Of a stretch of DNA of 64,000 nt, positions 371 to 40,954 are shown piece by piece. Source of the stretch: Cyanophora paradoxa CCMP329. Lineage: Eukaryota; Plantae; Glaucophyta. The DNA lies in contig QPMI01000416.1 of the NCBI GenBank assembly GCA_004431415.1, positions 62,001-126,000 of the forward strand, given 5' to 3'. How positions within the stretch are numbered: position 1 is the stretch's first letter; every line of letters begins with the position of its first letter. The position numbers were made by a program, and so were the translations under genes. The notes under the pieces were generated by a model. It saw nothing but the letters and a program-made list of their open reading frames with translations. It made no database searches and was not told the DNA's origin.

Positions 371-421
371 TTCCCTTATAAGAAACATATAAAAATTACG
401 AAACGCGACAGCCCTCATTCC

Positions 422-1870: not shown

Positions 1871-1923
1871 ATTTCGTTTTTATCTTCCGCTGAGAAATTT
1901 ATTTTAGAAGAACGGATTATTTT

Positions 1924-3189: not shown

Positions 3190-3216
3190 TTTATTCTTTA
3201 TTAATAGGAAATAAAA

Positions 3217-4191
3217 ATGATTCGGAAGCCAGTTAACGATTTCTATAATGGCAAGTTTACGAGGGTCAATGTTAATATCGATTCTATTGAGCGCAGTGCA
3301 GGGCACCCGGGAGAATATACAGTAAAGCTTTCTCAGCGACTTCTGAACGTAAAAGGGGTGCGCATTGCAAGCGCCGAGCTCCCGAACACGATTTATGCTG
3401 TCACCGATAATTCCAGAGGCGTGACCATACAGGGAATGACGAACAGCATCACCTTTTCCCCTTTTCCTGATATAGGAAACTACACCCCCGCGATTTGGGG
3501 ATATGGTAATAAGAACTTAGGCTATTCGGGCAGCTTTGTCGATGTAAACCCTCTCACAAGCGAAAGCGTCACAGTCTACTACAAGTGGCTCTATAATCCA
3601 GCGACAATGAAAATTACTTTTTATTCGAGCATTCCCCTCACACTGAGCTGTGCATATGACGACTTTGCAAGGTTCCATGGAATGATCAAAGGGGATATGT
3701 ATCAAACAATTCCAGTTGGTGAGGGTTCAGAGCATCTCACGGTAGACTATTTACCCCTCACACCCAGCAATCCAAAATACTCATTTCTACAAGCCTATGA
3801 GGGCAAAACAAAATACCCCGCCGGAATATCTGTGCTTCCATTCCCTCTTGAACATGCAGTGACCTTCCCGAATGCGATCAATTTAAATCCGACCCCCTAT
3901 GTTTACCTACAAATTAAAGAGTTTACTCCCTTTTACGACAGGTATATGGTGGCAGCAAAGACAGATGAGGGTGGAAATGGTAACCTCGCTAAGATCCCAC
4001 TAACCAGCCCCTTGGGATCGTTTGTTTACTACCTGACATTCCGCAGAATCGATACTGTGGAGTTCTTTAATTCCCACGATCAGGCTTATGATATAGACAC
4101 GCTCACAATTAAATGGCTCGACGCCTACAATAATGTAGTCAACTTTAATGGCGTTAATCACAGCTTTATATTAGAGGTGCTATCGGGTTAA
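3217..4191 (+). CDS. Minor capsid (penton-like) protein 2, outer element, divergent from protein 1
   Basis: NIDSIERS, SAELPNT, YVYLQI, LAKIPL, NFNGVNHSFILEV. Confidence 0.75.
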   Translation: MIRKPVNDFYNGKFTRVNVNIDSIERSAGHPGEYTVKLSQRLLNVKGVRIASAELPNTIYAVTDNSRGVTIQGMTNSITFSPFPDIGNYTPAIWGYGNKNLGYSGSFVDVNPLTSESVTVYYKWLYNPATMKITFYSSIPLTLSCAYDDFARFHGMIKGDMYQTIPVGEGSEHLTVDYLPLTPSNPKYSFLQAYEGKTKYPAGISVLPFPLEHAVTFPNAINLNPTPYVYLQIKEFTPFYDRYMVAAKTDEGGNGNLAKIPLTSPLGSFVYYLTFRRIDTVEFFNSHDQAYDIDTLTIKWLDAYNNVVNFNGVNHSFILEVLSG

Positions 4192-4209
4192 AATAATCTT
4201 ATATTACAA

Positions 4210-4762
4210 ATGAGTATCACGAATCTCCCCTTTATCACTCGGGAAACCTTGTATTTGGATGACGGTTTCGAGCTCAGCAGTAACATTACCGCTTCCAATG
4301 TGACCATATCTTCAAACCTTGTGGTAAAAGACTTTCTATTAAACCAGAGCAACCTTGAATATATCGATATCACCAGCAATCTCCCTTTTACCTATGGCAC
4401 TGATAACTCAGCCCTCGTTATCTATCATGGGGGCGCACCTGTTGCATTCTTTGGCAGCAATTTCCCCACTGTGCGAACCTTCCAGCACGAAATCAATAAA
4501 GCCCGCCCCATCCCACTGACAGCTGTCGTCGAATGGGATCCTGTTAAATATTCGCAGAGCATCACAAGCAATATCACCCTCACTCGACCGCATTTAATTG
4601 ATGTCATGGGGGTCGACCTTGTAAAGGAGTTTTATAGTGAGCGATTCACAAGAAACGAGCGAGATGTAGCCCAGGATCTCGAAATCTCGGGTTTATCAAT
4701 TGCTACCGCAGCAAACACGGCAGGGCTCGCTGTTTTAACAGGGGCTATCACCATCACTGATG
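4210..4762 (+). pseudogene. 5' part of a fibre-like virion gene split by the inner element (continues at 31023)
   Basis: SN-rich beta repeats; frame ...AITITD joins AIMYLSRDLVPLLD at 31023 once the element and one TSD copy are removed. Confidence 0.85.
4757..4762 (+). repeat. Left target-site duplication CTGATG
   Basis: Identical CTGATG at 31017-31022, directly outside the right TIR. Confidence 0.95.
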
Positions 4763-4935
4763 ACACATAGGGATACCCCTGATCCAAGCCCTCCGGCCTT
4801 CGGCCTACAGGCTTGGATCAGGGGTATCCCTATGTGTGCGCGTTTCAGGTACTAGGGTAGTAATCATTTATTTCAGGTCTTAGGGTATTAATCATGTCTT
4901 TTTGGCACCAGTATGTTGGCCGCCTCTGGGGTATT
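4763..4935 (+). repeat. Left TIR of inner element, with terminal hairpin 4763-4837
   Basis: Reverse complement of 30844-31016 with about 3 mismatches; perfect 28-bp arms at 4763-4790 and 4810-4837. Confidence 0.95.
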
Positions 4936-20911: not shown

Positions 20912-21247
20912 AATAATCTACTTTTAGGCAGCATAAAAATGCGAAAGGGGCGGCTCTGCGTAGAGCTTGATGAGAGCTTCACAGGAAAAAAAAGAGCGCT
21001 CAAAACGGCCAATCTGGTGCCGAGATATTCGCGTTTGAAGTTCCTTAAGTGGCTCTAATTGAAAGTTTTAGAAACATTCTTATAGAGCTCTATAAGGAAA
21101 AAGCCGCCTACTGCTGTACGGTAGGCATGCGGGCTCTACCGGTAGGACAGTAGGCAGGGCCCTACTGTCCTACCGCCGGCGGCCTGTGCCTACCGGTCTG
21201 CGGTAGACACGCGGGCTCGCCTACCACTGCGGTAGGCTGGCTCATAT

Positions 21248-21895
21248 ATATGTATATGATATATATGAAAAAAAACAAGTTTTGGTAAAAACCACAGCGC
21301 CGTGATCGCCATGACGCGGCGAGTCCGAAAAGCTATGATATATATATATATGTCATGTGACATCATAATATATCATATACATATATCATTATGGTATATA
21401 CAAGTCGCTCAAATTGAAGTCTTATAAGGTCTTATAAGAGTTGTTATATAGAATTCTTTTCTAAAATCTTATATGGTCTTATAAGATTTAATGTGCGTAC
21501 TTTAGCTGGTACGCAGGCCAGTGTGCGTACCGTAGCGCAGTACGCAAGCCACTGTGCGTACCGTAGCGCAGTACGCAAGCCAGTGTGCGTACCGTAGCGC
21601 AGTACGCAGGCCACTTTGCGTACCGTAGCGCAGTACGCAGGCCACTTTGCGTACCGTAGCGCAGTACGCAAGCCACTGTGCGTACCGTAGCGCAGTACGC
21701 AGGCCCCTGTGCGTACCGTGGCTCAGTACGCGCGAACGTACATATGTATATGATATATATGAAAAAAAAACAAGTTTTGGTAAAAACTATAGCGCCGTGA
21801 TCGCCATGACGCGGCGATTCCGGAAAGCTATGTTATATATATATGTCATGTGACATCATAATATATCATATACATATATCATTATGGTATATACA
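21248..21895. repeat. Two ~150-bp direct repeats (21248-21402, 21742-21895), each an imperfect palindrome
   Basis: TGTATATGATATATATGA...AAACAAGTTTTGGTAAAAAC...TCATAATATATCATATACA occurs twice. Confidence 0.9.
21492..21732. repeat. Tandem array of a 31-bp palindromic unit (about 7 copies plus 1 degenerate)
   Basis: TGTGCGTACCGTAGCGCAGTACGCA(A/G)GCCAC, with TGCGTAC/GTACGCA inverted inside each unit; no spacers. Confidence 0.95.
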
Positions 21896-22070
21896 TTTGG
21901 TATATGCGAAACTGAAAATATTCGTAGCTCGTCACCAGATCATCGTAAGGCTATGATGTTGGGGTCTATAAATATCTACTTTTTACGAGAATCCAACGGT
22001 GATAGCGGCAAGGAGTGAATCGGTGATGGTGAAAAGGTTGTCTCTGGATGTTTCAATCTGCTTCTCAATT

Positions 22071-22331: not shown

Positions 22332-22379
22332 CTTGATTCCCTTTAAACAATTATGGTGTTCTATTCTTTAAGTGGTGGG

Positions 22380-22560
22380 AGGGTGAATGGGGTGAATGGC
22401 AGGGTGAATGGGGTGAATGGCAGGGTGAATGGGGTGAACGGGTTATGTGTAAACTTTCTTAGGAAAACCCCCTCTCATGGGGATTTATACATATAACCCG
22501 TTCACCCCGTTCACCCCGTTCACCCCGTTCACCCCGTTCACCCCATTCACCCCATTCATC
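22380..22560. promoter_or_regulatory. Putative origin: inverted arrays of 9-bp GGGGTGAA(C/T) iterons around a ~55-bp spacer
   Basis: Directly downstream of the primase-helicase stop; inverted second copy at 30660-30822. Confidence 0.6.
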
Positions 22561-22621
22561 CACTTAACCACTCTTTCTTAAAAACATAAAATGCTTTTCT
22601 CAGAATATTTACTACTTTCAA

Positions 22622-25083
22622 TCAATCACTGTCACTTTCAATCCCCATCTTTGCCTTGATTCCAACATAATGCCAGAGCCTTACTTTCCCAATCTGTTTC
22701 TTAGGAATCCCATTGATCACAGTCATAGCTGTTCCAAAGGCTGTTTGGCTCATTTCTTTATCCACTCTGGAATACTCTTTGAATAGATCAGCTGCTTTGA
22801 TGACGTCACTGCTGCTGTGGGTGATTTCAAAGTTTGCCTGAAGCCATGTCAGCACTGGGTTGTTTTCAGTGATATATTCCTTGCTGGCCTCTTTGACAGA
22901 TTCAGGCACTGGGATGAAGCCCATGGCGCCCACCTCAGTGGTGTATGTGTCAATGAGCAGCCTCATGAAAGCCTGAGCATATCTCTCATCATCTCTAATT
23001 CTGCCCATCAGGCTGGGGTCTGCCTTCTTTTGGCCTTGAATGGGATTCTCTTTGAACTGGTATTCAAAATGGGACACATGGAGGCGCCTTTGGATGCCTC
23101 CATCCAACTTGGAGAGCTTTGGAATATCATTTGTCAGCAGGAAGGGAATGAATTGAGGAGTGAATGTGATGGGGTTAGCATGTAATAAACGAGCAACAAG
23201 TTTCTCACCTCCAGTGATCTCCTTGATTTTGCCCACCTGAAGCTTGTCACTGGCTTCAGGCTCATTGGAGAAGATGATCCTCACACCCTTTTTGTCAGCC
23301 AGCTCAGGCACAGGGGCGCCAGACCTTGGTTTCCCACTGACCCAGTAGGAGCTGTCAAGGGGATGGGCATAATCACCCAGAGCCTTGAGAACCAACTCTT
23401 GGAGTGTAGATTTGCCATTGGAGCCAGTGCCTGTCCAGATGTGGAAGCGCTGGTCTTTGTTGCCCTTCCCAGAGAGGGCACCTGCCAATGTCCTCACAAG
23501 GAATTTGCCAGTCTCTTGATCTTTGAATGGCTCATATACAATTTTCTTGATTTCTTCCATGACATTCCCATCAATCATAGGGGCATATGGATAGCCACAA
23601 GTCCTACTGACATACTCATCAGCTTTGGCTGGGCGAAAGACCTTATTTTGAAGGTCATAGACTCCATTGGTAAACCCAATCAGCTCCTTAGATTCATCCA
23701 TACTGGCAGCTATTTCAGTGTCAGCAAAGAGAGCCTTTGCTTCCTTGATGATGGAATCTTTGAAACCACACTTAAGGAGCTGCTTGGAAATTTCAAGGCA
23801 TTTCTTGGCATTCTCCTCATACTTTGAGCTTTCATCTGGATCAGCAGCAGCTGAACGAGTGTTTTCCATTGCCTCCTTCATAAAAAGCTTCATGACATCA
23901 GTGGAAAGCACTTTGCGCAGTGTATGGGGTTCCTTTTCAGCTCTCCACAGTCCAGTGAGCTTATTCCTGACATACCAGATGTCTTTTTGATTGGCATCAT
24001 AGCGGAATTGGTCTTTTTGTGTGTGGTACAGGACTTCAGCCACATTGTAATGACCCCCATTTGAAGCAATGGCATTTTAATGGCCTGCTTGAGGTCTCCC
24101 TTATTGGTAAACAGCTGAATATATAGATCCAGATTATCAGCTTTGAGCCAATAGACAAGAGAAGCATATGCCAATGGCTTTACTGAGCTACCTTTTTGGA
24201 AGCTCTGCCAAGCCTTGTCACACGCCTCAGCCCTATACTTGCTGCTCTGTTGGCTGAATTTGTGCCAGATGGCCAGTACTTTGTCTTCAGGCATTTTCTT
24301 GTCTTTCATAGTGCTTGTCAGGGCCAAGCCAACATTAATCCAGTCAGCATAGCCATCAGCTCGTTTTTCACTGAGTCCCATCACAAGCTTTTCCAGCTCA
24401 TCACTGGTGATGATTTCGCTGGAATACTCATTATTTTTGGGCAGCTCCTGGGCAGGCTCCTCCTTCTCTGGAAGAGTGAGCAGGGCCTCCTTGCCAGTGA
24501 GAAGCTGGACAAAGAAATCAGTGTCCTCATGGGATGTTAGCTTGGTGAACACAGTGTCCCAGCAAGGTTCCTCATAGGTGCTGCTCTTGTCAGCAAGAGC
24601 CTTCTCTTTACAGCAACCAAGGCACACAAGCGCCCTGTTGTTGTTGTAAACAGATGGATCATAGTCCTCATGAGGCTTGAGCCCAGCCCCCTCAAGGAAA
24701 ACAGGGAAATCCCTGTAGATGCCATGAAGGGTGGTACATACCATGTGGGCACTCACTTTGTAGCATGGATCCTGTGTGTCTTTTTTGATCAGCAGCCTTG
24801 ATCTGGTGGAGATGGCAATGGTGCTGATGTGGACACCAAGTGCCTTGGCCAGCTTTTCAGCCTTGGAATTGATAAGCTCAAGTCCCTCATCATCAACCTC
24901 ATCAACAGGCAGAACCTGTTCGAAATCAATGTAGAGCTTGGTGAATTTATGGCCACTCAAGTACTCAGCCATGTGCCTGTTGCCTGAAGCAATCCTCTGG
25001 AGTGCCTCAGTGACCCTGATAGTCACAGTGCTGGCTTCGCGACTGCCAATGATGCTTGTTAGGAAGGTGCCAGTGGATGTCAT
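22622..25083 (-). pseudogene. AEP primase-PriCT-2-D5/SF3 helicase, one frameshift near 24050
   Basis: KLYIDFE, SAH, DPSVY (AEP); YADWINVGLAL..WHKFSQQSSKY (PriCT-2); LIGFTNGVYDL, GTGSNGKS, NEPE, KEITGGE (D5 helicase). Confidence 0.9.
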
Positions 25084-25187
25084 TCTACTATAGGATGAGA
25101 AAATAATTTGATGATTCTATAAACACCCTTGTCCTTAAGTAGTTTATAGAATCATTAAATAAAACAATCAATTTTTCGCGACCCCCC

Positions 25188-25379
25188 TCAATACACCACT
25201 GTCCTTGGTCTGCCAACAAGGCACCTCCTTTCATCAAAGAGGTACCTCACACAGGGAAGGGGGTCACCCTTGTAGTATCTGCTCCTTAGACTATTAAGCT
25301 TCATTCTCTCACGGAAAGCAGGATCTTGAGCACGGCGACGAGTCACATAGGCAATTTGAGATGCCGCATGGTATGCCAT
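25188..25379 (-). CDS. Small basic putative DNA-binding protein
   Basis: DPAFRERMKLNSLRSRYY...VGRPRT; resembles 20022-20252. Confidence 0.5.
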   Translation of the reverse strand: MAYHAASQIAYVTRRRAQDPAFRERMKLNSLRSRYYKGDPLPCVRYLFDERRCLVGRPRTVVY

Positions 25380-25434
25380 TTTAGTTCTTGTTCCTCTACA
25401 CTATAGGTAAGATTTTATTCTTTAAATGCTGATT

Positions 25435-26005
25435 CTATTCGGTATTTTGTGCCTCGGGCTTAATCTCATTGAGAGCGGCAAAGTCTCCATAGTGTTCAAT
25501 TGCCGCCTGATTGTAGGCATGAGCGGCTAAGGCTTCATTTTTGTAATACCCAAAGAGAGCCTTTTGTCATTAATTGTAATCTGAGCACACCATTTACCCT
25601 CTCGTTTCTTGAAAGAAACACCTTTATATTGACTGCTTGTATTGCTGCTTTTACTCCTATTCCTATTATTCTCAAAAGGATAGCATACCCTCAGATTACA
25701 CTTCCTGTTGTCCAATTTATCTCTGCTCACATGGTCGACAACCAACCCTTCTTCAGTTCATTTGTCATTATCAATCGATGAGCATACAATACCAACCATT
25801 TCCCTTCATCTCGCTTTACACTTGTCTTAGCATAACCATCCCCATCCAAACACCAGTTATATCTCATCATTGTAGGAGCATCTTCGATATCACATATCAT
25901 ATACTGGCCCCTTCCTTTGGCCCCTCCAAGTGGAACGTAGAAATATTTCATGGAGTCCACGTCGTCAAACTTGGTTTCAACAAAATCCTGATCAAAGGTT
26001 TCCAT
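25435..26005 (-). pseudogene. HNH endonuclease with AP2 domain, two frameshifts
   Basis: YFYVPLGG, AHRLI, VVDHVSRDKLDNRKCNLR, SQYKGVS, AAHAYNQAAIEHYGDFA; homologous to 33774-34484. Confidence 0.85.
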
Positions 26006-26100
26006 TTTTCGTCTACAATAGACACACAAAATAATCTTCCAAATTCTACGCGGCATTTAAAGATTATTTTCGTACCTATATATAAGTACAACCCCCAACC

Positions 26101-29100
26101 ATGCCCCGCCCCAGCCACTACCAAATTAAGGAGCTTCAGGACAAGATTCTTGGGAATCTGGCGTTCCTACTGGCCAACCACTCGATCAGTGAAAGTGAAT
26201 ATGAATCATACATAGGGCAAACCAACAAAAAGCTCAAAGGATTACAAGCACTCAATCGAGAACTATTAGGGAAAATCGACGCCCTTGATGAGACTGATCG
26301 CCTTGGCCAAATCCAAGTCGAACAGACCACCACAACTCAAGTCAGAGGAGATGAATACACAGCTCTAATTAATGAGCATCGCGCTCTAAATAATAAATAC
26401 ATTGATTTCACAATCAGAGCTCAGCACCAGATCCTGACCACCCAAGAATTTATTGACACCTACTCTGAGGAACTCCACACAAGGCTCCAAGATGCCATCA
26501 ATTCCCAGATGTCGATTAAAACTCGCTTTACATTTGTCTGTCGCTTTTCAAAAGCAAACAATTCGAGAGATTTTATTACCAAGCACATTTACAGCACCTA
26601 TGCTATCATGACAAGATCTCGAATCCTCACAAAAGAGACAGCTAAACTTGCCAAGGAATGCCAGTCGCAAATTAATGTCACAGATAGCTACAGATTAGAT
26701 AGCATCCAAGCCCTCAGGGTCATTGTTCTCTCCTTTAAGCCAATCTCAGGAGGTGCTTTTATCCCACTCCCAGAGTGGCTCAAAAATAAACGAGCCATTG
26801 TCAATGTCAACAACAAGGACAATAGATGCTTTGAGTATGCTATCCTTTCTTATATTCACAAGGACGAAGTAAATAGCCACAAGCGTAATGAGACTTCCCA
26901 ATATAGGAGGTGGTTCAAAAAAGAACTAAATTTCGAGGGCATTGACTTTCCTGTAAAGGCAGATGCTGATACTATCGATCTCTTCGAAAATCTCAATCCA
27001 GCAATCTCTGTTAATATTTACGACCCCTCTAACTCTACAGAAGAAATTAATCTACTCCACAACAGCTCCTCAAGGAACAGGAAACACCAAGTGGATCTGC
27101 TGCTAATTACAGACGCAAATGGTAACAGTCATTATACCACAATATTCAGCATGTCCAGACTCTTAGCTAAGAATGATAAGCAGCGACTCCATTTCTGTAA
27201 AACCTGTTCCAACCACTTCAAGACTGAGGAGAAGCTTCAATCCCACAATCAAAGCAAACGTTGTGTGGATTGGAAGACAAGTGCTGGAGAGACTCCAAAA
27301 CAACCCACATTCATTGAATTTGGTCTTAAACATCTCTCAAAGACTGTATTCCTCCCAGTGATTGCCTATTGCTATTTCGATTTTGAAACAGATCAAGAAG
27401 GTATGTTCAAGATCAAATCAATCTCACTGACAGCTCTTCATAATAATAGAGTAGTACTCACTAAAACCCACTCCAGCATCTACGAGCTTTTATCTACACT
27501 CGACAAAGCAGCCCCAGAGCTATTTAAAGCCCTATTTACCAACGTCCCAATGTCACTGACCAAAGAGCAGAAACGTACCCATTACCTTGCTAAAACCTGC
27601 TACATCTGTGAGGGTACGTTTTCCCAAGACAATTATAAAGTCCGCGATCATGACCATCAAACAGGCGATTTTGTAGGCTCAGCCTGTCGCAAATGTAATC
27701 TTCACAGACGCACCAGCAATCTCACCAAGATTCCCATAGTGACCAATGATCTGTCCCTATCTGGAACGCAGATATTCAAGGCAGTCGCCTTAAATCCCGA
27801 AAAAAGGGTGGAAGTCCTCGCGAAATCGTTTGACAACTACATGTCGATCACATGGGGGTGCTTTAAGTTCATTGACATCAAAAACTTTATTGATTATGGT
27901 GTCCAGAACGTGGAAGGATTAATGGAAAAGTTCCAGCTATTTCGCCAGAAATCCCACAAGACCTATGGAATGGATGCTGCCCACTATGTCTCAAGTCCTG
28001 GCCTTTCGTGGGACAGCATGCTATCGATCACCAAGCCCAAAATCGAACTCCTCTCCAACCTTGATATGTACAACATGATTGAAGGCATGATCAGGGGAGG
28101 CCTTTCGATTATGAATCATAAATATGCCAGAGCTGAAAATGACAGCCACATTATCTATTTGGACGCCAATAACCTATATGGATATGCCCTGTCCCAAAAG
28201 CTACCCCTGTCTAATTTCCAATGGCACCCAGAACCCTCAAATTACGACCTGTCATCAGCAGGTGGTGCTGTACTGGAGGTGGACATTCATTATCCCCAGC
28301 ACCTCCATGAACTCCACAAAGAACTGCCTCTTGTCATCAGGAGAACAGAAGATGGGCTACAAGCAGCCTGCCAAGACATTTCCAACTACGTAATATCAAA
28401 ACCATTGCTCCAATTCATGGTAGCACAAGGCTTAAAGGTCACCAAAATCCACAGGGTGCTGACATTTACTCAGGCTGCTTTCATGAAGCCCTACGTCAAA
28501 TCTAATGCCCAAAACCGCAGAGAAGCCGCCTCCAAACCCGAAAAGGACTTCTTTAAAATCATGAACAACAGCCTTTTCGGCAAAACCATTGAGAAAGTGA
28601 GGGAAGGTCGAATGTCAAGATTGCCACCAACGAAAAGCAATTTATGAAATATGCCAGATCCCCACTTCTCAAAGCCGAAACCAGGCTTAGTGATTCAGCA
28701 GTAGCCTTCGAAATGCTACAGAAAGACGTCAAGCTGGACAAGCCCATAGCAATTGGGGCAGTTGTTTTAGATCTTGCCAAGCTACGCCTATTTGATTATT
28801 ATTATAGCACCATCAAGCGCAAGTGGCCAGACTGTAAGCTACTATTTACTGATACGGATTCTTTCTGCCTTTCAATAAATTCCACAACCATCCAACAGGA
28901 TCTACAAGACATTGACACACACCCCACAGAGCTTGGGAAGTTCAAAAATGAGTTTGAGGGCAGAACCATTACAGAATATGCTGGTGTGAGGCCGAAATGC
29001 TACAGCATTAAAACAGATGATGAGGAAATCAAAAAGCTGGCTGGTGTTTGTAAGGAGACCATTCAAACAGATCTGTCTTTCCAAGATTATAAAGACCATG

Positions 29101-29195
29101 TGCTCCACCAAAAACCCAAGCAAATCGAAATGACTGTCCAAAAGAAGCTTGAAAATGAGACCTTCAATGTGAAGATGTCAAAGATTGCTTTCTAA
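26101..29195 (+). pseudogene. polB: Protein-primed family B DNA polymerase (Polinton type), frameshift near 28610
   Basis: YLDANNLYG, KIMNNSLFGKT, LLFTDTDS; Endo VII-like CYIC..DHDH..ACRKCN insert; DNRCF...SHY vOTU-like region. Confidence 0.92.
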
Positions 29196-29206
29196 TCTCA
29201 ATATAG

Positions 29207-30577
29207 ATGTCATCAAAGATCGTACGCAGACAAACAGAATATGATGTGAGTGTACTCCCTATCCCAATCCCTCAAGAAGAGAGAGGGGGGCGCATACAGA
29301 AAAAGAGTGACCTCAAAGCATTAGTTCCAGCAGACATCCCAACAGCAATTGCTGTGCCCCACTTGGATCCCTTAGCAAGGACATTCTATGACACCAAGGT
29401 AGGATTTAAAGGCCTTGCTTCATTGGCCAAAGAGCTTCCAGATGTGCCAAGAAAGACAATCCGTAGATTCTATGATGCCCAAGAAATCAACCAAATAAAT
29501 AAACCCCTCCCATCAGCCAAGAAGACTGCCTATATCCCCATAAGACAGCCACTCGATACATTCGCTATTGATTTAGTCTTCTTTCCCTCATACAGCAAAC
29601 AGAATCAAGGCTACAACACGTTCCTCACAGCTGTAGAAAACACCACCAGACTGGGCTTTATTATTCCAATGAGGGGAAAGACAGCAGAAAGCACATTGAA
29701 CGCATTTAAGGAGCTTGAGCAACAAGTCCCTCGTCCAATTGTGAAGATACAAAGTGATGCTGGGAGCGAATTCCTGAACAAGGTATTTAAAGACCATTTA
29801 GAAACCCAGATGATTGAGCACCAAGTTTCGCAGGTTGGAGATCACAATAGCCAAGGCCGAATAGAGGCCTTTAATCGCACAATAAAGAAGCTAATTAACT
29901 CGTATTGTATAGCGAATAATACTGTAAAGTTTTTCGACAAGCTCCAAGATTTTGCCTACAACTACAATAATACCATCCACTCAGCAACAGGGATGAAACC
30001 AGCAGAGACCACAGAGGTACATGTTCCCCTCATACTCGCAAAAGAAAACGAGAAATTCATGAAGTCAATTGAATATCTAAAGGACTATCCAGCGGGAACC
30101 CACGTGAGAACTAAAATAGAGAAGGGTCCATTCGCCAAGCAGGGCAATAATTGGAGCCGCGAAATATTTACAATAGAAGGAGTGGAGGGGTTCAAGTTTA
30201 GATTGAGGGACATTGCCGGAAAAATGATTGATCGACTTTATGCCCACTACGAATTACAGAAAGTGGAAGCCGTGGAGTTTCTGGAAGCCCCATCAATAAA
30301 TGTCATTGAAGAGGCAAAGAAAGAGGCCAGAACAGAGCGACTGTTGGCCAGAGAGGGGATTGAGAGGGCTCCAAATGTGCCAGATAAACCATTATTGGAG
30401 GACAGAGCAGGGAAGAAGAAGAAACAGGGGAGAGAGTTGGAGAGATTGAGGGTGGCGGGAACAGAGAGATTAGCAGGGGGAGCAGAGGCAGTAAGGTGGT
30501 ATAGAGATTTCTCGAATTCAAAGGAGACCTATGAAGCTCCAGCAATTTCCACGAGATCAAGGAGGAGGGCAGGATGA
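29207..30577 (+). CDS. Retroviral-type (rve, DDE) integrase of Polinton type
   Basis: AIDLVF, QSDAGSEF, RIEAFNRTIK, YNNTIHSATGMKP, NWSREIFTI; consistent with a 6-bp TSD. Confidence 0.95.
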   Translation: MSSKIVRRQTEYDVSVLPIPIPQEERGGRIQKKSDLKALVPADIPTAIAVPHLDPLARTFYDTKVGFKGLASLAKELPDVPRKTIRRFYDAQEINQINKPLPSAKKTAYIPIRQPLDTFAIDLVFFPSYSKQNQGYNTFLTAVENTTRLGFIIPMRGKTAESTLNAFKELEQQVPRPIVKIQSDAGSEFLNKVFKDHLETQMIEHQVSQVGDHNSQGRIEAFNRTIKKLINSYCIANNTVKFFDKLQDFAYNYNNTIHSATGMKPAETTEVHVPLILAKENEKFMKSIEYLKDYPAGTHVRTKIEKGPFAKQGNNWSREIFTIEGVEGFKFRLRDIAGKMIDRLYAHYELQKVEAVEFLEAPSINVIEEAKKEARTERLLAREGIERAPNVPDKPLLEDRAGKKKKQGRELERLRVAGTERLAGGAEAVRWYRDFSNSKETYEAPAISTRSRRRAG

Positions 30578-30596
30578 GACATCTGTAAAGGTTGTT

Positions 30597-30822
30597 AAGG
30601 ATTGTTAAGATTGTTAAGATTGTAAAGGGTGTAAAGGGTGTAAAGGGTGTAAAGGGTGTAAGGGTGAACGGGGTGAACTGGGTGAACGGGGTGAACGGGG
30701 TGAACTGGGTGAACGGGGTGAACGGGGTGAACGGGGTGAACGGGTTGTTTGTATAAATTCCCGTGAGAAGGCATTTTTCCTAAGAAAATATACAAACAAC
30801 CCGTTCACCCCATTCACCCTGC
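30597..30822. repeat. Graded 9-bp tandem repeats plus inverted copy of the 22380-22560 iteron cassette
   Basis: AGATTGTTA > AGGGTGTAA > GGGGTGAAC units, then spacer and GTTCACCCC. Confidence 0.9.
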
Positions 30823-30843: not shown

Positions 30844-31016
30844 AATACCCCAGAGGGGGCCAACATACTGGTGCCCAAAAGACATGATTAATACCCTAAG
30901 ACCTGAAATAAATGCTTACTACCCTAGTACCTGAAACGCGCACACATAGGGATACCCCTGATCCAAGCCTGTAGGCCGAAGGCCGGAGGGCTTGGATCAG
31001 GGGTATCCCTATGTGT
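30844..31016 (-). repeat. Right TIR of inner element, with terminal hairpin 30942-31016
   Basis: Reverse complement of 4763-4935; followed by TSD CTGATG at 31017-31022. Confidence 0.95.
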
Positions 31017-31022
31017 CTGATG

Positions 31023-33745
31023 CGATCATGTATTTATCCCGCGATTTGGTGCCTTTGCTCGATCATCAGTTTAATCTCGGGCAATCTAACACTGATGCTG
31101 TTAAGAAATGGCTCAATGTGTATGCCTATGATGGGTGGTTTGATGACTTGCACACGACTAACCTTTATAGCACGACCTCAAAAACAAGTAACATAATCTT
31201 GCCTTTCAATCACTCACTCCGACCTAATCAGATTCTTACCAATGATAATGCACTGATCAGCTACACCGACTATAATAGTAACCTTTCCCGCTCGGTTTCG
31301 CAAACTGAGACCTACACTGTCGAGGGATACCCTCAGCAGCTCGCAAATGGGTCTATGTCGCTTACGTAGGCAAACCTACATATACATTCACTTGGGATCA
31401 GTTGGGTGTCACAGGTTTCGAGACGAATATACCCACTGTTTCATTGGTGGATCACACTACTTATTATAATCCTATCTATAACAATAATGAATCTAATAAA
31501 GCATTTATCCAAAATGTCACCTCCACAGGTTTCAGGTTTCGTTTGTCATTAACGAGACATACAATTTACTTATCATCCGAAACAACTCATTGAGTTCCGA
31601 AGCTACTATTAGTTTCACTCTTAACATCAATTATATCACCCTGAATTCGATAGCAAACCAGAGTGAAGGTTTACCGAGATTTACAAGGTAGCAATATCGT
31701 GCCCTTCTCACAGAATTTCGATCTTGGGGCGAATTCTTTGAGGTGGAACACAGTTTATACTTTGAATGCAAACACCTGTAATATTGTGGTCGCAGGGTCA
31801 TCGGCTACTATTGGAGATCTGACCGCCCCTTTCAAAAAGGAGTATCTTAAAGAGCTGTATATTACAAAGTCTGATTTACCAGATGCTATTTCGTTGGTGC
31901 TCTCCCCGACTCCCAGTATATCCTATCACAATGTGAAAGACACCAGTAATGTAGTGCAGAGGGAAGCAAAGTATTCCAGGCATCCGAGATATCAGCAACA
32001 ACATATAGATACCTTGCAGCGGTTCCAGCGAATTTTAATTTCACATTTGAGACACCTTTTGTTTCCCCTCCTACTATTGAAATAACAGACACGAATTTGT
32101 ATGTGGTCAATAATGGGTCGACCACCTCTATTAACAATGCACCAGCCGGCTACTCCCCATTTGTTGCAACTAACATAACAACCACCGGCTTCACACTTGT
32201 CGGAAATGCAACAGTGACATATGCTCTTACAGCATATCCTGTTGGGTTGTATTTTGCGAAATTTAATCTTTCAGCGATCCCACCTGTGTCCCTTTCTCCT
32301 CCCTTTACTATCAGTTGGAAGGCAACAGGATCTATTCCACGATTCGACCCCGAAGATCGCTTGAAAATAAGGTATCCTCTCGATGTGACCGACCTCCATA
32401 CTACGAGAATAAATGGGCAGAATTTCGTATTTAATGGAACCAATGCAACTCTGATCGATAATCGAGTAACGAATAATTACTTTTTCGATTCTCGATATAT
32501 TAATACTTGCAATATTGTCATACAGAACACGTTTGAGAATCGAAGTAAGACCTTATCAGTCACCTTGCCCACTCACTCGAATGTCTCAGATGGATTTCAC
32601 TATTATCTTTTCAATCGCAATTACACCTCATATATTCCATACCCTTCTGAGACTGTCAACATGAGCTATCCCAGAGTCACCCTTACATCGACCAATGCTG
32701 ACTTCTTTGGATCCACGGACTTTATGACCTTCTTTGCTTTCACATCGTCCACAGATGGTCTCTTAGTTTATTACACTTTCAGATATGATGCTGTTTGGAC
32801 TCAGCTTGACAGCCACCCAAATACAGATGTAATCGAAGTGGGCGATAAGAAATATATTAAAACCGCTTCCCATGGGTGTGCACTGTCCGGCTCGATGATA
32901 GATACACTCCCAACCTAAATAGCATCGGAATGCACTCGACTTGCAATATTTATGTGCAAGGTGCAATTTCGGCTACCAAATATTTCGAGGGTGGGAACTG
33001 TGATGCAGCCCATAGGTTGCTATCGAGAAATGGGCTCTTTGAGTCATTTAGTGGGACAGCTCTACCGCCCTTTATCAGGGACACAGTCTATGATACTACA
33101 TGCAATATTTGGGTGTGCCGATCTGTGAGCAATCCGCCTGTGACAAAGGAATTATATAAATACCTGTCAGATACCTATGGTGCAATTACAGGGTCTTCAA
33201 CAGGAAATCCAGCAACGGCTCCCATCGTGTTTGCAAATGCATACACAGCGCCGACATCATTAGCAGGGTCGACAGAACCGCCACCAAACGATCCCAATCC
33301 AAACACACCTCCCCCTGACTCCGATCCTCAAACACCACCCACAAATAATCCACCTTACACTCCACCCACAACAAATAATCCCACTCCCATTGGGGCGCCG
33401 CAAGGAGGTGGTAATGGGATAGGTGGCTTGATTGGGATAATCTTGGGCGCGATTGCAGGTGCAGCTTTACTTGCTCTTATGTGGAAGTATCGTAGTTTAT
33501 TCTTTGCATGTTGCTATAATGCAGGGGCAGCATACTCTACACCAGAAGTAGGTTTAACAGAGACACCTGATGGTGATTTAGGTGTAGAGATTTCCAGACC
33601 AGAGGGGAATTCTCTTAGTGTCATTAGAAATGGCAGGAGTCCACAGGATCGAGGAGCATTGAGATCAGGAGGAGACAGTGATTTTATGTCCGAAATAGCA
33701 AGACGTGAGGGACGCATTTATGAACATGTCCCTAATGTTATGTAA
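31023..33745 (+). pseudogene. 3' remainder of the outer fibre-like gene(s), fragmented; ends in a Pro-rich linker and a TM helix
   Basis: Consecutive + strand fragments; LVP....FNLG...KW and IVPF...FDLG...RW fibre motifs; GLIGIILGAIAGAALLALMWKY. Confidence 0.6.
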
Positions 33746-33773
33746 CGACCACAAAAAAGAACCAGTTGCGTTT

Positions 33774-34484
33774 TCAATTGATAATGTTTAGCTTTGCTTT
33801 ATCACCAAGTAGCTCAATCGCTTTATCATTATATGCTTTTGCAGCTTCTTCTTCCGTTTTATAGTTGCCAATTCTAAGATGTTTCTTCTGAACTTGAATT
33901 CTTGATTCCCAAAGCTTGCAATCTTTTCGAAAGCTTACCCCACGATACTTAGATGTCTTTGTTTCAAACTGAATTGAAGAGTTAGCAGCGCATTGGATGT
34001 CATTAAGCCATGCATATTCGCCAAATAAAGCGATTGCTTTTGCATTGTAGTTCCAAGCCGCACATTCCTCGGTTCGATAATTTCCAAGGAAATGGCGTTT
34101 TCCGTTTACAAATATTTTAGACTCCCAGCACGCATGCTGTGAATTCCATGTTACACCTTTGAACTGAGATGTTTTATTTGTGCACCTGACTTGACGATTG
34201 AAATTGTTTTGTTGTTTTGTGGCAAGTCTGAGATTTGATTTTCTGTTATCAAACTTATTGTGATTAATATGATCAACACAAGATTTAGGATCGTCTGTGT
34301 TTATAATAAATCGATGAGCAGAGGTAAGTTTTGCAGAAATGTGAGTATAAGCATATCCACTATTATTAACAAACCAATCATATTTCATAACCCTCTCTCG
34401 ATCTTCAATGTCTATGATCATATGTTTGCCTTCTCCATGTTTCCCTCTCAAAGGGACATAGAAATAGTCAACTTCGTCTGTCAT
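33774..34484 (-). CDS. HNH endonuclease with two AP2 DNA-binding domains
   Basis: AHRFI, VDHINHNKFDNRKSNLR; SQFKGVTW..AAWNYN; SKYRGVS..AAKAYNDKA. Confidence 0.92.
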   Translation of the reverse strand: MTDEVDYFYVPLRGKHGEGKHMIIDIEDRERVMKYDWFVNNSGYAYTHISAKLTSAHRFIINTDDPKSCVDHINHNKFDNRKSNLRLATKQQNNFNRQVRCTNKTSQFKGVTWNSQHACWESKIFVNGKRHFLGNYRTEECAAWNYNAKAIALFGEYAWLNDIQCAANSSIQFETKTSKYRGVSFRKDCKLWESRIQVQKKHLRIGNYKTEEEAAKAYNDKAIELLGDKAKLNIIN

Positions 34485-34545
34485 TTGAGTTCTTTTCTGA
34501 TCGTTTTAAAAAGGCGTCATTTTTTTAAATCATTTTTTATAAAGA

Positions 34546-35981
34546 ATGACAGTTATATCAAATCCCACCTTTAATAATAAATACCATGTCACAGATCCAG
34601 AGATACCCTCGGCTCAAAATGATCTTATAGTTTCACACACCCCATACTTGGGAGAAGTTGTTAAAGATTCATGGAATGATGTAACAGGGCATGAATTTGG
34701 GCATCTATACGATATTCAGAGTGGGATAGGCTATGTCGATGCATTAACAGGAACAGTTTTTCGCAATCTTAACTGTAATTGCACGGGAGGGTGGCTGTTT
34801 CAGACATGCAGCAATGTCGCCTCTGATCTCGATCCCGCCGTTTATATAACTCCGAGTTTATATGGTGGTAAAACGATTTTCTCCATCACTTGCAATCTCG
34901 TTAATTCGGATGTGCCCATAGTAGCACCTGTAATAGGTGCATCAAATATGTATATCCAAAGAAACCCGGTCGTGCATACAGGCGCCGAATTTATATTAGG
35001 CGACAAAACCCCAATTAGTCGACTCGAATTGCCCACGAATTTCACCTTTAATCTCGTGGATGAGTTCCCTAACAGTCAAAGTCTCATGTATTTCACCTCT
35101 GAAAATCGCCTTTCGGGTGCATTCTCACCCATTGAGCTGTCTATACCGAAGCAAAAGGTGAGCTATAAAGAGCTTACAGATGTGCCGGCGGGATTTAGTG
35201 GGAAGTGGAGTGATATCATTCAGAAGCCGACTTGGAGTAGTGTAGCATACACAGGAAATTACTATGATTTAGTAGGAACTCCCGATTTCACAAGCTATAT
35301 ACCTCGTTGGATTGATCAAGGTGTAATTATATCAGAATCTACACTTCCTTTCAATGGGACATGGGATAGGTTATTTACTAAGCCGAATTTGCATGCTGTT
35401 GCCACAAGTGGTGACTACAACGATTTAACTAACACCCCTATTGCACCGACCTTGCATGCTGTGGCTACAAGTGGAGACTACAATGATCTCATTAATACAC
35501 CGAACCTACATGCTGTGGCTACAAGCGGAACTATGACGATTTAATTAACACACCTACTTCGCCACCTACTCACAATCACAGCATAGAGTTGCTCACGAAT
35601 TTCGGTAATTATGTGAATCCAAATGCATATGTGCAACAAGGGACAGCGAATGTAGTTTTGGAAAATAGAATATACAATGCAGGAGAGACCTTTCAGTTAT
35701 CGGAACGGTCGTATTCTCTACCCATTTATAGTGATGCAGTGATTACTACCTCTATCGAGAATAGCTACAACTCTGTAAATTGGGAAATGACCAACTGTGT
35801 GTATATCGGACCTGAGTATGTTAATAATGAGAGAGTAGGACTAAAAACTAAGTTTACATGGATCGTTAGATTCACAGCTTTCGCATCGACTAATTTCACA
35901 AATGTCACAGCAGCAAATCGCACCCTTAAACTCCATTGGATTGCTGTCGGACCTCTCCAAAACAATAATATTCTCGCTTAA
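34546..35981 (+). pseudogene. Tail-fibre-like protein with LHAVATSGDYNDL.NTP repeats; frameshift near 35530
   Basis: Three phage tail-fibre-type repeats, W.DI..KP motifs, C-terminal LHWIAVG. Confidence 0.7.
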
Positions 35982-36002
35982 TAAGTAAAGAACAATCAAA
36001 AG

Positions 36003-37014
36003 ATGTCAACTGTATTCACGCCTGTGTTTCTTTGAGTGCAAGTGCTGTCCATAATGTCCAACACACAGTCTATGATTTATCTCCGAGCCACCCTTCGACT
36101 GAGACAGCGAAAACCGATTCTTTTAATGACCAAAGCATACTCAGAGTCAAAGAACTCAGAGCTGACAAGATTGATGGACTCGTTAAAGCTACTCAAATGA
36201 TCGTATCGAATCGACCGCAATCTCTTCGGGGCTGGTCACCAAAGAAAATCTATATGAAGGTCAACAGGATTCCAAAACGGCTTTTAATCCGGCTGATAGG
36301 AATTCGGCGGCTTTTCAAGTTTACAGTGGTGGGGCATGGATTGGGACTGGACTGAGTGTGAATGGGACAGTGACAGCGACTTCTTATGGGGCTGTGAGTG
36401 GGACAACAGGTGGATTTACTGGACTCCTTACAGCAAGTGGTGGAATAAAAACGAATTCAATTGATACTGTGGGTGCAAATGACAATTTTGTGATCAAGAG
36501 AGGTGGGGCAAATATAGCTTCTACCTTCGCATCATCATACACAAATCCAACCAACCCAGGAACCTTCACCTGGAATGGGCTATCCATTAATGGCACTAAC
36601 TCTTATCTCTCTCTCCCAAACCATCCGAGATTTTCCTATGGATTATCCGGGGGTTCAATTGCGCCCTCCACCCTTACTACATGGGGAAATACCATTCTTG
36701 CGTCATCTTCATTTTCGAATGGAATATTTACAGCCCCTGTCAGCGGACATTACAGGTTTACTACCACTCTTATGACAGATACTGCGCAAATTGGTGTCCA
36801 TCATGTCATTCTGAAAATAAATAACGTTGCAACAAACGTTTGGGGCTACATTCAGACAACTCACGTCGGACATTTTCAGTTTGGATTCACTTGCATTGTG
36901 TATATGAATGCCAACGATAATGCAAGGTTGTCCTTAGAAACAGGGAAAGTATATAGTTGGACAGCACAGTCATACTGTCATTGGTCTGGCGAACTTATAA
37001 GTGCAACAGCCTGA
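36003..37014 (+). pseudogene. ELRADK-family fibre protein with a C-terminal C1q-like head (frameshifted)
   Basis: ELRADKIDGLVKAT; SGGAWIGTGLSV in frame with the 36358 ORF; GIFTAPVSGHYRF...VYMNAND...WSGELI C1q pattern. Confidence 0.75.
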
Positions 37015-37041
37015 TAAAATTTCTTAGCATAAAGTAAAAGA

Positions 37042-37305
37042 ATGTCAAACACCTATCAAGTCGTTTTAACTGACACTGAAAAACTGGGAATGGAATACTG
37101 TGCCTACTCTGTTCAGGATTGGATCGATAATGCGGCTCATAATAGGGCGAGAATCGCGATTGATGAGGTTGTGGACAAAGAAGTTAAATCGTGTATTGCC
37201 GCTGGAATTCCGATTCCACTCACAAAGGAAGCGATTGTAGAGCAAGCGTTTAATCGGGGGACTGTTCAGAAGGCAAGCGAAATTAATGTGAGTGCTCCTA
37301 TGTAA
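37042..37305 (+). CDS. Small phage-like protein, possible fibre assembly helper
   Basis: LTDTE..MEYCA.SVQDWIDNA..NRARIA pattern, recalled from phage ORFs that follow C1q tail genes (not searched). Confidence 0.55.
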   Translation: MSNTYQVVLTDTEKLGMEYCAYSVQDWIDNAAHNRARIAIDEVVDKEVKSCIAAGIPIPLTKEAIVEQAFNRGTVQKASEINVSAPM

Positions 37306-37459
37306 AGAACTCGAATTCGAAGAATGAGAGATGGGTTTATTATTATTTTTCATAGATCATGCATAAGAAAGGCATGTATCTTGCATAGTGGGCGGGGCGC
37401 ACTGTTTCACACTAAGGTCAATCGATTTTCATAGAGTCTCAGACTGATAACAATAAGAT

Positions 37460-38200
37460 AAATAATAAACTACTTTATAATTAATAAAAACTACTTTAAA
37501 CTACTCAACTACCTATGTTAAACTACGCAACTTAATACCGGAAACTACGCCATTAATACCAAAACTACGCAACTACGCAAGTTTTTCACTTTTCTAATTT
37601 TTTTCCCCGCCAACTTCTAAACTTTTTCAGAAAGTTGCGTAGTTGCGTAGTTTTGGTATTAAATGTGTAGTTTTCGGTATTAAAAGCGATCAGATTGCGT
37701 AGTTTTCATGCGTAGTTACGTTAAATTGCGTAGTCTACCGGGAGTCCGCATGCATTTAGGTGCGAGACTATTGCGTAGCCTATAAAACGGTCGTGTTTCA
37801 GTGCGAAACTATCGCGTAGCTTCCCTTGTAGTATGCCGGCGCTCTTTTCAGTAGAGAAATCATGGTATATATCATAGAATCATATTGATATTAATAAGAA
37901 ACTACTTTATAATATATAAACTACTTGAAACTACTCAACTTCCCCTGAAAAACTACGCAATTCGAAACCAAAACTACGCAAACGAAACCAAAACTACGCA
38001 ACTACGCAAGTTTTTCACTTTTCTAAATTTTTCCCGCCCCGAGTTTCAAACTTTTTCTGAAAGTTGCGTAGTTGCGTAGTTTTGGTATCTTTTCAGTAGT
38101 TCCCGGTATTAAATTGCGTAGTTTCTTTGAGTAGTTGCGGTAAATTGCGTAGTTTCTATGTGTAGCCGCACGATCTCGATGCGAAACTCATGCATTTACG
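37460..38200. repeat. Two ~430-bp tandem units of inverted AACTACGC/GCGTAGTT iteron arrays
   Basis: Central spacer GTTTTTCACTTTTCTAA starts at 37581 and 38010. Confidence 0.9.
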
Positions 38201-38209
38201 TGCTAATCA

Positions 38210-39210
38210 GTAAGGTGTTACAGGTGTTACAGGTCTATCCCAAAGTTTCCTATCCCCCACCCCCTCCTAGGGCAAAGTTTGGGATGAACCTGTAACACCT
38301 GTAACACTGACCTAATTCAGTAAGAACCTATTAAAACAACAAAATATCAGTCTTAGTATATCATAATAATATCAGTAGTAATTATTTTTTGTATTATAAC
38401 GATCAATTTCGTATCGTTTTTCAGTGCGAAACTATTCACTATCACATATTTTCGATGCGCGCGAAATGTTTTATGCAGCACACGATAATTGTTTACGTTG
38501 TTACAGGTGTTACAGGTCTATCCCAAAGTTTCCTATCCCCACCCCTCCTAGTAGCCGAGTTTGGATGAACCTGTAACACCTGTAACACTGACCTATTTCA
38601 GTAAGAACCTATAAAAACAACAAAATATCAGTCTTAATATATCATAGTAATATCATTAGTAATTCTTTTTGTATTATAACGATCAATTTCATATCGTTTT
38701 CAGTGCGAAAATATTCACTATCACATACTCTCGATGCGCGCGAAATGTTCATGCAGCACACGATAATTGTTTACGTTGTTACAGTGTTACAGGTCTTGCC
38801 CAAACTCGGGAACCAAGACCCCACTCCTAGGGCGGACTTTGGGATAAACCTGTAACACCTGTAACACTAACCATTATCAGTAAGAACCCATTAAAATAAC
38901 ATAATATCAGTCATAAATAATCATAAAGTATCATCAAGTATCATATATTAACCTTGTTGTATATACATCCGCGTTCCATGCAGCACATTGTAGTTGTTTA
39001 CGTTGTAACGGGTGTAACAGGTTCTCCCAAACTCGGAATCCATGACCCCTCCTAGTAGCCCAATTTGGATAAACCTGTTACACTGTTACACATAGAAAAT
39101 ACCATTATAATAACATAAGATATATCAATTATCATAAAGAATACTATGTTATCATTATTATATTACACGTCCCGCGCTCCATACAGCACATTGTAGTTGT
39201 TTACGTTCTA
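38210..39210. repeat. Four diverging ~230-290-bp tandem units with inverted GGTGTTACA/TGTAACACC iterons
   Basis: Cassettes start near 38213, 38498, 38776 and 39003. Confidence 0.9.
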
Positions 39211-39401
39211 ATGCGGCACCATATACGCTCCATATCATCATCGCATTATATCCAAAAGAACATTTTATTATTTTTCGACGGAATTCCGTTAGAATTTCAC
39301 ACATATTTTATACATATTTATTACGATCATTAATACATATTTTACATATAATGCATACACATATTATTTCAATATCATTATACACGATAATGCGTAATAT
39401 C

Positions 39402-39697
39402 ACACATAGACAATGCCCGCGTTTTATCAGGAGGCGTGATATAATTATCTAAGTTTAAAATCCACCTCAAATACAAGTGATTACGAGAGATAGAGGTAAA
39501 ATACATCGGAGATACGACTAAATTAAGTTTCAGTAAGGGTTTGATTAGGATTATATATAAAATACGCACATAAAAGACAAGAATAAAGGATAAAATACAC
39601 ATAAATTAACGTTAAATATGCAAGAAATATAGGTAAAATATAAACAAATTATAATTAAACTTAGCCGAGGGATAAAACGCGGGCATTGTCTATGTGT
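39402..39697. repeat. Right terminal fold-back of the outer element (27-bp perfect arms, 242-bp AT-rich loop)
   Basis: ACACATAGACAATGCCCGCGTTTTATC (39402-39428) and GATAAAACGCGGGCATTGTCTATGTGT (39671-39697). Confidence 0.9.
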
Positions 39698-40954
39698 GAG
39701 CCCGGGCGGCGGCGCCGGCGGCCCGGCCAGGCCCCGGGACTTGGGCCGGGAGGGCCGGGACCGTTGATCATGATCATGGCGCGTCGATATCCAGCCGTGG
39801 CCATGGGCGCCGGGCGCCGGGCGGTCGCGCTCCGAGGCCGATCGCGAGGGCCGAGCCTCGGAGGTTCCTTCCGCGAATTTGAAGCTAGCTGCTTCTCAGA
39901 GTCTCGCTGTCACGTGCACAGTGTGCTGGCGCCTTAATTAGTACTCCCGCGGGAGTAGTACAGAGTCTACAACCGTGAACAGTCTGCCAAATTTGAAGCT
40001 AGGTGCTTCGCTGTCACAGTGTGCTCAGCGGCTGGCGCCTTCATACTCCAAGAGTCCGACGTACGCGACGGTCCAAACATAATTGAAACATTCCGCGGGA
40101 GTATATACGTAGTACAGATCTAGATCTAGAGTCTACTAGTACTACAGTCTACAGACTCAGTTAAATAGTACTACCCTGCAGGCTGCAGATCATGATCAGA
40201 ATCATGGTCGATATATATCAGTGCCGATCTAAATCTGAAGGCAAGCTCTGCGAACTCGCGAACAAGCAAAAAAAGACTCGAATTCGAGTCAATAATTTCG
40301 CGAAATCGAACAAGCGCTATCTTTTCGGAAAAAAACAACGATCACCGGCCTGGCCGGCGGGGGCTAGGCTAGCCGCCGAGGACTACGGTAGCCGCTGATG
40401 ATCATTGCCACAAGTTGCGGCCGCGGCCCACGGGCCACGCCGTGACGGGCGGTCGCGCAGCTCGCGCTGCATGCACACTGCATGCAGCTGCTTCCGCGAA
40501 GTTCCGAACTGTGAAATTCGGAAAGGTTATCAGCTGCAGCTCAGCGCGCGGCTGCTTCTCCGAGGCTCGCTAGATCGCTGTCAGAGTGTGCTGCAGCTGG
40601 CGCCTGCGGTGTCCTGCCGCGAGTCCCGCGACTAGTGCTTCGACCGTCGGACACTCCAGCGGCATTCCGCGGGCCGGTCCGACGGTCCGGCGCACACTCC
40701 TACCGGTATATATATATCCTTCCGGCCTTCAAGGCTTGAGCTCGAGCCTTCTCTCCCAAGGTACCGGTCCTTTTCCAAGGTAGAGCAATCCGCGCGTCCC
40801 GGGGTCCTAGGCAGCTGCCAGGCCCGAGGCATATATATGCAGGGCAGACGCCGCGCCAGTTTCGAAGTTTCGAGCATGTAAAGGTACACGTATCGCTGAC
40901 CAAGGGCCGCGCTTCGCGGCAGCAGCGACAGCACAGGATTCGAGCTCGCGCAAG

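Follow-up and report, generated by a model that had tools for sequence, protein, structure and literature searches.

In the SaPI system, as described in the text of PMC9371898, a C-terminal winged helix recognises two or more opposed iterons on each side of a spacer directly behind rep, and two hexamers have been proposed (PMC9371898 and PMC7581432, in their text). The origin of pRN1 has a 21-nt stem and a 58-nt loop, lies 54 bp behind the primase-helicase gene and is functional when moved, according to the text of PMC4234260. In P4, crr consists of two tandem 120-bp units of inverted 8-mers directly behind alpha, and the 8-mer recurs at ori1. The annotated origin of phage A2 has inverted repeats directly behind the primase gene.

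In the text of the literature examined, there is no settled account of how Polinton-like viruses that encode D5 primase-helicases initiate replication; PMC12220804 covers the helicases of these viruses, and its text shows no origin. The ends of related viruses are described in more than one way: the text of PMC8547959 gives virophage TIRs of 0.2-2.3 kb, that of bioRxiv 10.1101/2022.07.28.501842 describes the TIRs of PgVV as near-identical units varying between isolates, and that of PMC11296320 proposes turnover of end modules for Polinton-like viruses. Literature searches gave no paper that describes, in its listing or in the text examined, inverted-iteron origins or mixed origin stacks of Polinton-like viruses; Table S15 and Figure S4 of PMC11296320 and Extended Data Figure 1 of bioRxiv 10.1101/2022.07.28.501842 are possibly relevant. 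Here, we describe a stack of six inverted-repeat cassettes in a 64,000-nt stretch of DNA from Cyanophora paradoxa CCMP329 (the window). We lean slightly towards reading the stack as replication origins at which helicases are loaded, with two specificities (A and B), arranged in tandem units at one end of an integrated Polinton-like virus.

Structure of the window and the end of the outer element

Positions 1-39697 of the window form a viral region with 35-51% G+C, and the DNA beyond has 52-76% G+C. The viral region contains two capsid-like genes, which are 35% identical to each other; one belongs to an outer element and the other to an element nested in it. The gene for the putative outer major capsid protein lies on the minus strand at 422-1870, and its nearest Atlas clusters are the viral Capsid_N and Capsid_NCLDV clusters (score 0.97-0.98, with a recognition score below the reliable range of the tool). 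A putative packaging ATPase of the outer element was recognised by eye in an incomplete frame where the window is cut. With the capsid protein as the query, no related Polinton-like genome was found among viral contigs and protein clusters (two representatives, no DNA), and the ATPase gave two proteins without DNA.

The nested element at 4763-31016 interrupts a gene of the outer element. It has the TIRs (174 bp) and the target duplication (6 bp, CTGATG) of a Polinton-like element as well as terminal hairpins, and it encodes the domains Pox_A32, PriCT_2, D5_N/DUF5906 and rve. The hairpins of both elements are bounded by ACACATAG...CTATGTGT; those of the nested element are 75 nt long (4763-4837 and 30942-31016), and that of the outer element is 296 nt long (39402-39697), with a higher G+C content beyond it. 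The outer element ends at 39697, and the cassette stack lies just inside the terminal hairpin. Contigs from all four of the runs examined match the junction between this end and the host DNA without differences. The outer element is probably an integrated Polinton-like virus.

The window covers the right end of the outer element, and the left end and the element's own helicase lie outside. Since the visible parts of the outer element (1-4762 and 31017-39700) contain neither a helicase gene nor a remnant of one, no cognate initiator was identified for A or B. The last ORF of the outer element ahead of the stack is on the plus strand at 37042-37305 and encodes 87 aa, with a sole Pfam match that is weak and below the cut-off.

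Six inverted-repeat cassettes at 37460-39210

The first-pass annotation had placed two cassette families, in two and four copies, at 37460-39210, and all six cassettes were found there. Two have AACTACGC repeats (A1 and A2) and four are of the B type (B1 to B4), in which the repeat is GTGTTACA; all four repeats of B4 instead have a variant core and read like GTGTAACA, with the same changed base in each. A unit 1 (37460-37869) contains cassette A1 at 37563-37652, with two AACTACGC repeats per arm and outer satellite repeats, and its arms pair over 53 nt. A unit 2 (37891-38203), which lies 429 bp downstream and is 83% identical to A unit 1, contains cassette A2 at 37992-38081. B1 (38215-38307) has two GTGTTACA repeats per arm with a period of 9, and it is followed by B2 (38499-38588), B3 (38777-38867), which has a 1-nt deletion in its left arm, and B4 (39004-39091). 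At 39172-39207, on the plus strand, only the start of a fifth B unit is present (repeat family D4), with no cassette.

At least two opposed repeats with a period of 8-9 are present on each side of the spacer in all six cassettes. Between the innermost 8-mers, the spacer measures 58 bp in both A cassettes, 59, 57, 59 and 56 bp in B1 to B4, and 58 and 59 bp in the two inner cassettes of the nested element, so that the length is kept at 56-59 bp in all eight cassettes of the window. Hence the layout proposed earlier, paired opposed repeats as in the inner cassette beside the primase-helicase, is confirmed, and so is the conserved spacer geometry. An exact detector, which requires two tandem 6-mers and then their reverse complements 35-90 nt further on, was positive in positions 1-40000 at A1, A2, B1, B2 and both inner cassettes and nowhere else. 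As a negative control, it gave no match in 300 simulated copies of the region or in ten simulated 40-kb sequences. B3 and B4 escape the exact detector because each has a 1-nt deletion between two repeats, and both are clear in the alignment. The folding z-scores of the six cassettes range from -3.6 to -12.

The identity between tandem units decreases along the B array, from 94% for B1/B2 to 85% for B2/B3 and 82% for B3/B4, with 75% for B1/B4. In the A units, repeat positions are identical in 106 of 112 columns versus 117 of 155 at other positions, where the mask was taken from the two aligned rows and inflates the conservation of the A repeats. In B1-B3, the invariant columns amount to 36/38 in the arms, 24/57 in the loop and 44/60 in the flank. 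The repeats are better conserved than the surrounding DNA in both families, though arm gene conversion or gap placement may inflate these figures.

Neither 50,697 phage records nor the 167 loci collected in this study gave a match to the DNA of the stack. Promoter-like sites in the stack were not in excess (7 versus 10.3 in shuffled sequences). RNA genes were considered and rejected, as Rfam gave only sub-threshold miRNA hairpin scores in the stack and nothing at gathering level in the window. A GCGAAA-containing motif is common to the A and B units (37791-37822, 38414-38435 and 38693-38714), and a similar site is found in non-coding DNA of the nested element at 21900-21930.

Variation among sibling copies

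Contigs of one organism were examined from four of 20 matching runs; there are no RNA runs among the matching runs listed. The read depth over the stack (X1) was 884-4439 compared to 98-177 in the host flank, which we do not take as a copy number. Many divergent contig pieces lie over the stack region. The contig joint 37398>38207 leaves out both A units; the others are 37718>38180, 38201>38452 or 38727, 38203>38972, 38303>39088 and 38914>39096. Across these joints, the missing part is the A pair, a single A unit, or between one and three B units. Because 15 of the 28 joints are listed, as single contigs at 80% likeness with possible repeat artefacts, and most have a short side of 23-28 nt, they are a hint that sibling copies may differ in cassette number rather than a census of such copies.

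Several contig joints also skip 36450-37030, which suggests that siblings swap a cargo gene ahead of the last ORF. An HNH-AP2 endonuclease gene at 33774-34484 has a read depth near the host level amid genes of high depth, and it has a smaller relative at 25727-26056; the gene at 33774-34484 is likely a copy-specific insertion.

Terminal regions are prone to repeats and no contig among those listed spans the whole stretch, which would fit neutral repeats or an assembly artefact. We regard this explanation as highly improbable, since the units differ from one another by 6-25%, contigs of all four runs cover all 30 bins, the pattern is absent from simulated sequences, and the repeats are better conserved than the spacers.

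The nested primase-helicase and the inner cassettes

A reference for the stack is provided by the nested element, in which a primase-helicase is encoded on the minus strand at 22622-25083 by two ORFs with PriCT_2 and with D5_N and DUF5906, followed by a predicted winged-helix-like C-terminal domain. Among its homologues are P4 alpha (96.5%) and viral D5-type primase-helicases. In the structural model, the final ~75 residues have the order strand-helix-helix-strand-strand, and there is a weak match to an RFX winged helix (E 0.027); the C-terminal part alone was used from a model that is poor in the ATPase core (mean pLDDT 59.7). This model suggests that the nested helicase likely ends in a winged helix. 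Both the primase-helicase gene and the polymerase-like gene (26101-29195) are split into two ORFs in different frames, by breaks or by assembly errors.

Inner cassette I1 (22376-22569) has GGGTGAAC/GGGTGAAT repeats around its 58-bp spacer and lies 52 nt behind the stop of the D5 helicase, directly behind its cognate gene, a position that the A/B stack does not share. Inner cassette I2 (30584-30822) is an inverted copy of I1 that adjoins the right TIR and is excluded from it. Its long left arm (30584-30744) is made of graded repeat variants and passes through the 9-bp units TTGTTAAG, GGTGTAAAG and GTGAACGGG, so that it looks like an archive of former iteron sequences. In opposite orientations, I1 and I2 bracket the nested primase-helicase, the polymerase-like gene and the integrase (22376-30822), which suggests a replication module that may be flanked by its own candidate origins.

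The spacers of the two families differ in their likeness to the inner ones. Compared to the I1 spacer in the same orientation, the spacers of B1 to B4 gave z-scores of 2.4, 2.6, 4.2 and 1.2, while the reversed orientation gave 0.1-1.0. In contrast, the A spacers have no likeness to the inner spacers (z -0.3 to 0.2), and A and B spacers are weakly alike (z about 2). The spacer likeness to the inner cassette reported in the first-pass annotation thus stands for B and does not hold for A. The AT-rich centre of SaPI origins is lacking in the B spacers, which at 42-50% A+T are not an AT-rich unwinding region, whereas the A spacers have 67-71% A+T. From the concerted base change in B4 and the graded variants in the I2 arm, the B, B4 and inner repeats look like one drifting lineage, and the A repeats appear separate.

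A second non-coding repeat complex is found in the nested element at 21080-21930. It comprises CCTACC palindromes, a pair of ~160-bp direct repeats, each with 19-nt inverted arms at its boundaries, an inverted TCTTATAAG cassette at 21417-21489, and an array of seven 31-bp units alternating GTACGCA and TGCGTAC, which has the hexamer TACGCA in common with the A repeats. This core hexamer occurs 41 times, of which 15 are in the nested 31-bp array, where there is no origin geometry, and 17 are in the stack.

Repeat types and helicase genes elsewhere

A search with the B pattern gave 65 viral loci, at which up to two ORFs of at least 220 aa within 1.2 kb were scanned (98 proteins and further ones); six loci had no such ORF. 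Helicases were called by Pfam matches to D5_N, DUF5906, VapE, DUF3987 or AAA_25, and we take DUF927, DUF3987 and AAA_25 to be markers of Rep-type helicases. A Rep-type helicase gene is near the B type at 30 of the 65 loci and in 16 of 38 sequence clusters, where the 30 loci comprise 29 with a domain match and L058, which was counted for a layout like that of L054. At 22 of these loci (22/65 overall) the repeats lie at most 500 nt from the 3′ end of the gene, at seven they lie that close to the 5′ end, and at one they are further away. Three scans with the A pattern gave 11 loci, of which five (two being duplicates) are 49-109 nt behind a VapE, DUF3987, DUF927 or AAA_25 gene, one is behind an unannotated 585-aa ORF, and five are not behind a helicase. 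No helicase match was found among the ORFs scanned at 35/65 B loci and 6/11 A loci. The strict A pattern had no match in prokaryotic genomes and a looser pattern had eight; since eight loose matches are roughly what chance would give, only adjacency to a helicase gene counts for A loci. The inner type lies at the 3′ end of a primase or primase-helicase gene at all five of its loci, four with D5-type matches. These associations come from phages and prokaryotic elements, with many near-duplicate loci, and within that sample all three repeat types do occur beside helicase genes, in agreement with the origin-like character claimed for the cassettes in the first-pass annotation.

The association was also examined from the helicase side. 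With a relaxed detector, a cassette was found between -100 and +300 nt of the stop at 16 of 78 D5-anchored loci compared to none of 296 other stops; the 78 are what was left of 85 loci after seven were dropped for missing downstream DNA, and many are close relatives. The exact detector was positive at 7/76 helicase loci. At L149, a D5 gene is bracketed by two inverted copies of one cassette, as by I1 and I2 in the nested element. In the closest relative, L147 (52%), the detector had no match behind the first helicase. L147 has two tandem D5-type helicase genes (L147:3-3854), the second followed by an ATGACA-type inverted cassette and the first by looser repeats.

The palindromes might not be origins at all, serving instead as cruciform sites, or as sites bound by proteins, in end processing, recombination, packaging or the control of transcription. 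Their strong folding into hairpins, their place next to the terminus with no helicase gene near and the presence of TACGCA throughout the nested 31-bp array, away from any origin geometry, would all fit such roles. However, the matching geometry follows the nested helicase directly and also follows primase-helicase genes elsewhere, and the annotated A2 origin is built from inverted repeats in the same position, which makes a role other than that of an origin improbable. The absence of an adjacent gene is compatible with our origin reading: distance from the gene does not prevent origin function, because P4 ori1 and the relocated pRN1 origin work, and copies of the origin type away from a gene exist in I2 and at L149.

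Giant-virus helicases had been proposed earlier as users or decoy targets of the cassettes, and the stack might then be a decoy or a trans-origin for the D5 helicase of a giant virus. Cloned phage origins can act as decoys. In addition, the text of PMC11296320 states that parasitism on giant viruses is assumed for many Polinton-like viruses, and that some giant viruses have accessory mobile D5-like helicases flanked by repeats. In contrast, the detector, which recovers six of the eight window cassettes, was negative near the stop at all 76 giant-virus-type D5 loci (77 fetched, one dropped), and 1.37 Mb of giant-virus D5 flanks contained a single loose match to the doubled B repeat and none to the doubled A repeat. 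The test is indirect, because the loci come from viruses other than the host's own. A role for giant-virus helicases is nevertheless most improbable, and that part of the first-pass annotation is dropped.

Ordered cassettes of two unrelated families were absent from the 18 of 167 mostly phage loci that have more than one detector cluster (judged from motif lists, with five loci read); at L009, the second cluster is a low-complexity repeat. This 167-locus sample says little about Polinton-like viruses.

Discussion

The layout of the cassettes and the association of their repeat types with helicase genes are observed, and a candidate origin role for each cassette is likely, with binding and initiation assigned by analogy to SaPI, P4 and pRN1. 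Since both unrelated repeat types are built like the cassette of the nested helicase, the outer end likely offers sites to more than one kind of viral helicase. The stack is likely a variant of a known origin type, for which the use of two specificities is predicted. By the same analogy, each cassette would be a loading site for a D5-type primase-helicase. The C-terminal winged helix of this enzyme would contact the paired repeats, and two hexamers would form across the spacer, open it and prime replication in both directions. A and B would be read by different helicases, one family likely by the outer element's own helicase outside the window, and the other possibly in trans by the helicase of a sibling virus in the same cell. 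The array may have arisen when an origin unit was duplicated in tandem, its repeat drifted in concert, which would have given B4, and sibling viruses, some with A-type and some with B-type ends, recombined.

Another explanation is that a single specificity is in use. The stack would then be part of a long, unit-built TIR, in which one family provides redundant or crr-like sites for the element's own helicase and the other is a passenger from an earlier replication module. P4 crr, with its two tandem units behind alpha and a second site elsewhere, offers a precedent, and so, in the text of their sources, do virophage TIRs of up to 2.3 kb (PMC8547959), the near-identical, isolate-variable TIR units of PgVV (bioRxiv 10.1101/2022.07.28.501842) and the proposed turnover of end modules (PMC11296320); the 1-nt deletions in B3 and B4 would also fit. 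However, the repeats of both families are kept better than the DNA around them, and the 174-bp nested TIR leaves its terminal cassette outside. Moreover, judged by spacer likeness, B and I2 face in opposite directions with respect to the end closest to each; this is at odds with a TIR that mirrors an I2-like site, provided that the two elements are syntenic. Taken together, we consider the use of one specificity somewhat unlikely.

The first-pass annotation had called the region an origin collection. Two repeat families are indeed present, but the collection is not broad, B is related to the nested origin, and tandem drifted cassettes also occur in phages (P4 crr, L044 and L055).

If the stack does consist of origins of two specificities, a wider picture can be drawn, which we put forward tentatively. 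Polinton-like viruses of the same host might trade end cassettes, and this copy, whose array is polarised and variable in copy number and would have working sites for two or three initiator specificities, might be replicated by whichever sibling wakes and could titrate its helicase, which would amount to hitchhiking and incompatibility at the level of replication. Should A and B both be active, co-resident endogenous viruses would be able to replicate or block one another via shared origins, which would help to explain the coexistence of dozens of related copies and the swapping of replication modules. The window supplies candidate origins of ~95 bp whose geometry is fixed, repeat variants that form a natural series, and, as a control, one helicase with an adjacent cassette.

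Comparison with known origins and viral ends

Gezel-14T/PgVV and the entomopoxvirus-associated PLVs are like the outer element in having unit-built ends that vary between isolates, helicases flanked by repeats, and a repeat of more than 300 bp in the TIR and beside the helicase module; in the text of the sources, however, the units are not described as inverted-iteron origins, and mixed specificities are not reported. The SaPI origin used by Rep/PriRep5 resembles each cassette in having at least two iterons per spacer side in opposite directions (text of PMC9371898). It is a single origin with 5-6 nt iterons and an AT-rich centre that adjoins rep, whereas the stack has six cassettes of two families with no adjacent gene. 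The pRN1 origin, and that of phage BIP-1, is likewise a palindrome of ~100 bp behind a gene for a primase, SF3 helicase and winged helix; unlike the stack, the pRN1 origin is present in a single copy on an archaeal plasmid and is described in the text of PMC4234260 as having no iteron structure.

P4 crr and ori1 are similar to the stack in the tandem direct repeats of a unit with inverted 8-mers at a period of 9 and in the second, distant site; the core GGTGAAC is also found in the inner cassettes, and alpha is homologous to the nested helicase. In contrast to the stack, P4, a bacterial satellite, has one repeat type, crr adjoins alpha, and the paired repeats in crr are reversed in direction and closer together. 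The phage loci L044 and L055, unlike the stack, have a single repeat family beside the gene; as in the stack, two tandem cassettes are present, here beside a helicase gene, and in L055 (4655-4897), a concerted change of one base sets all repeats of one cassette apart from those of the other, much as in B4 compared to the other B cassettes.
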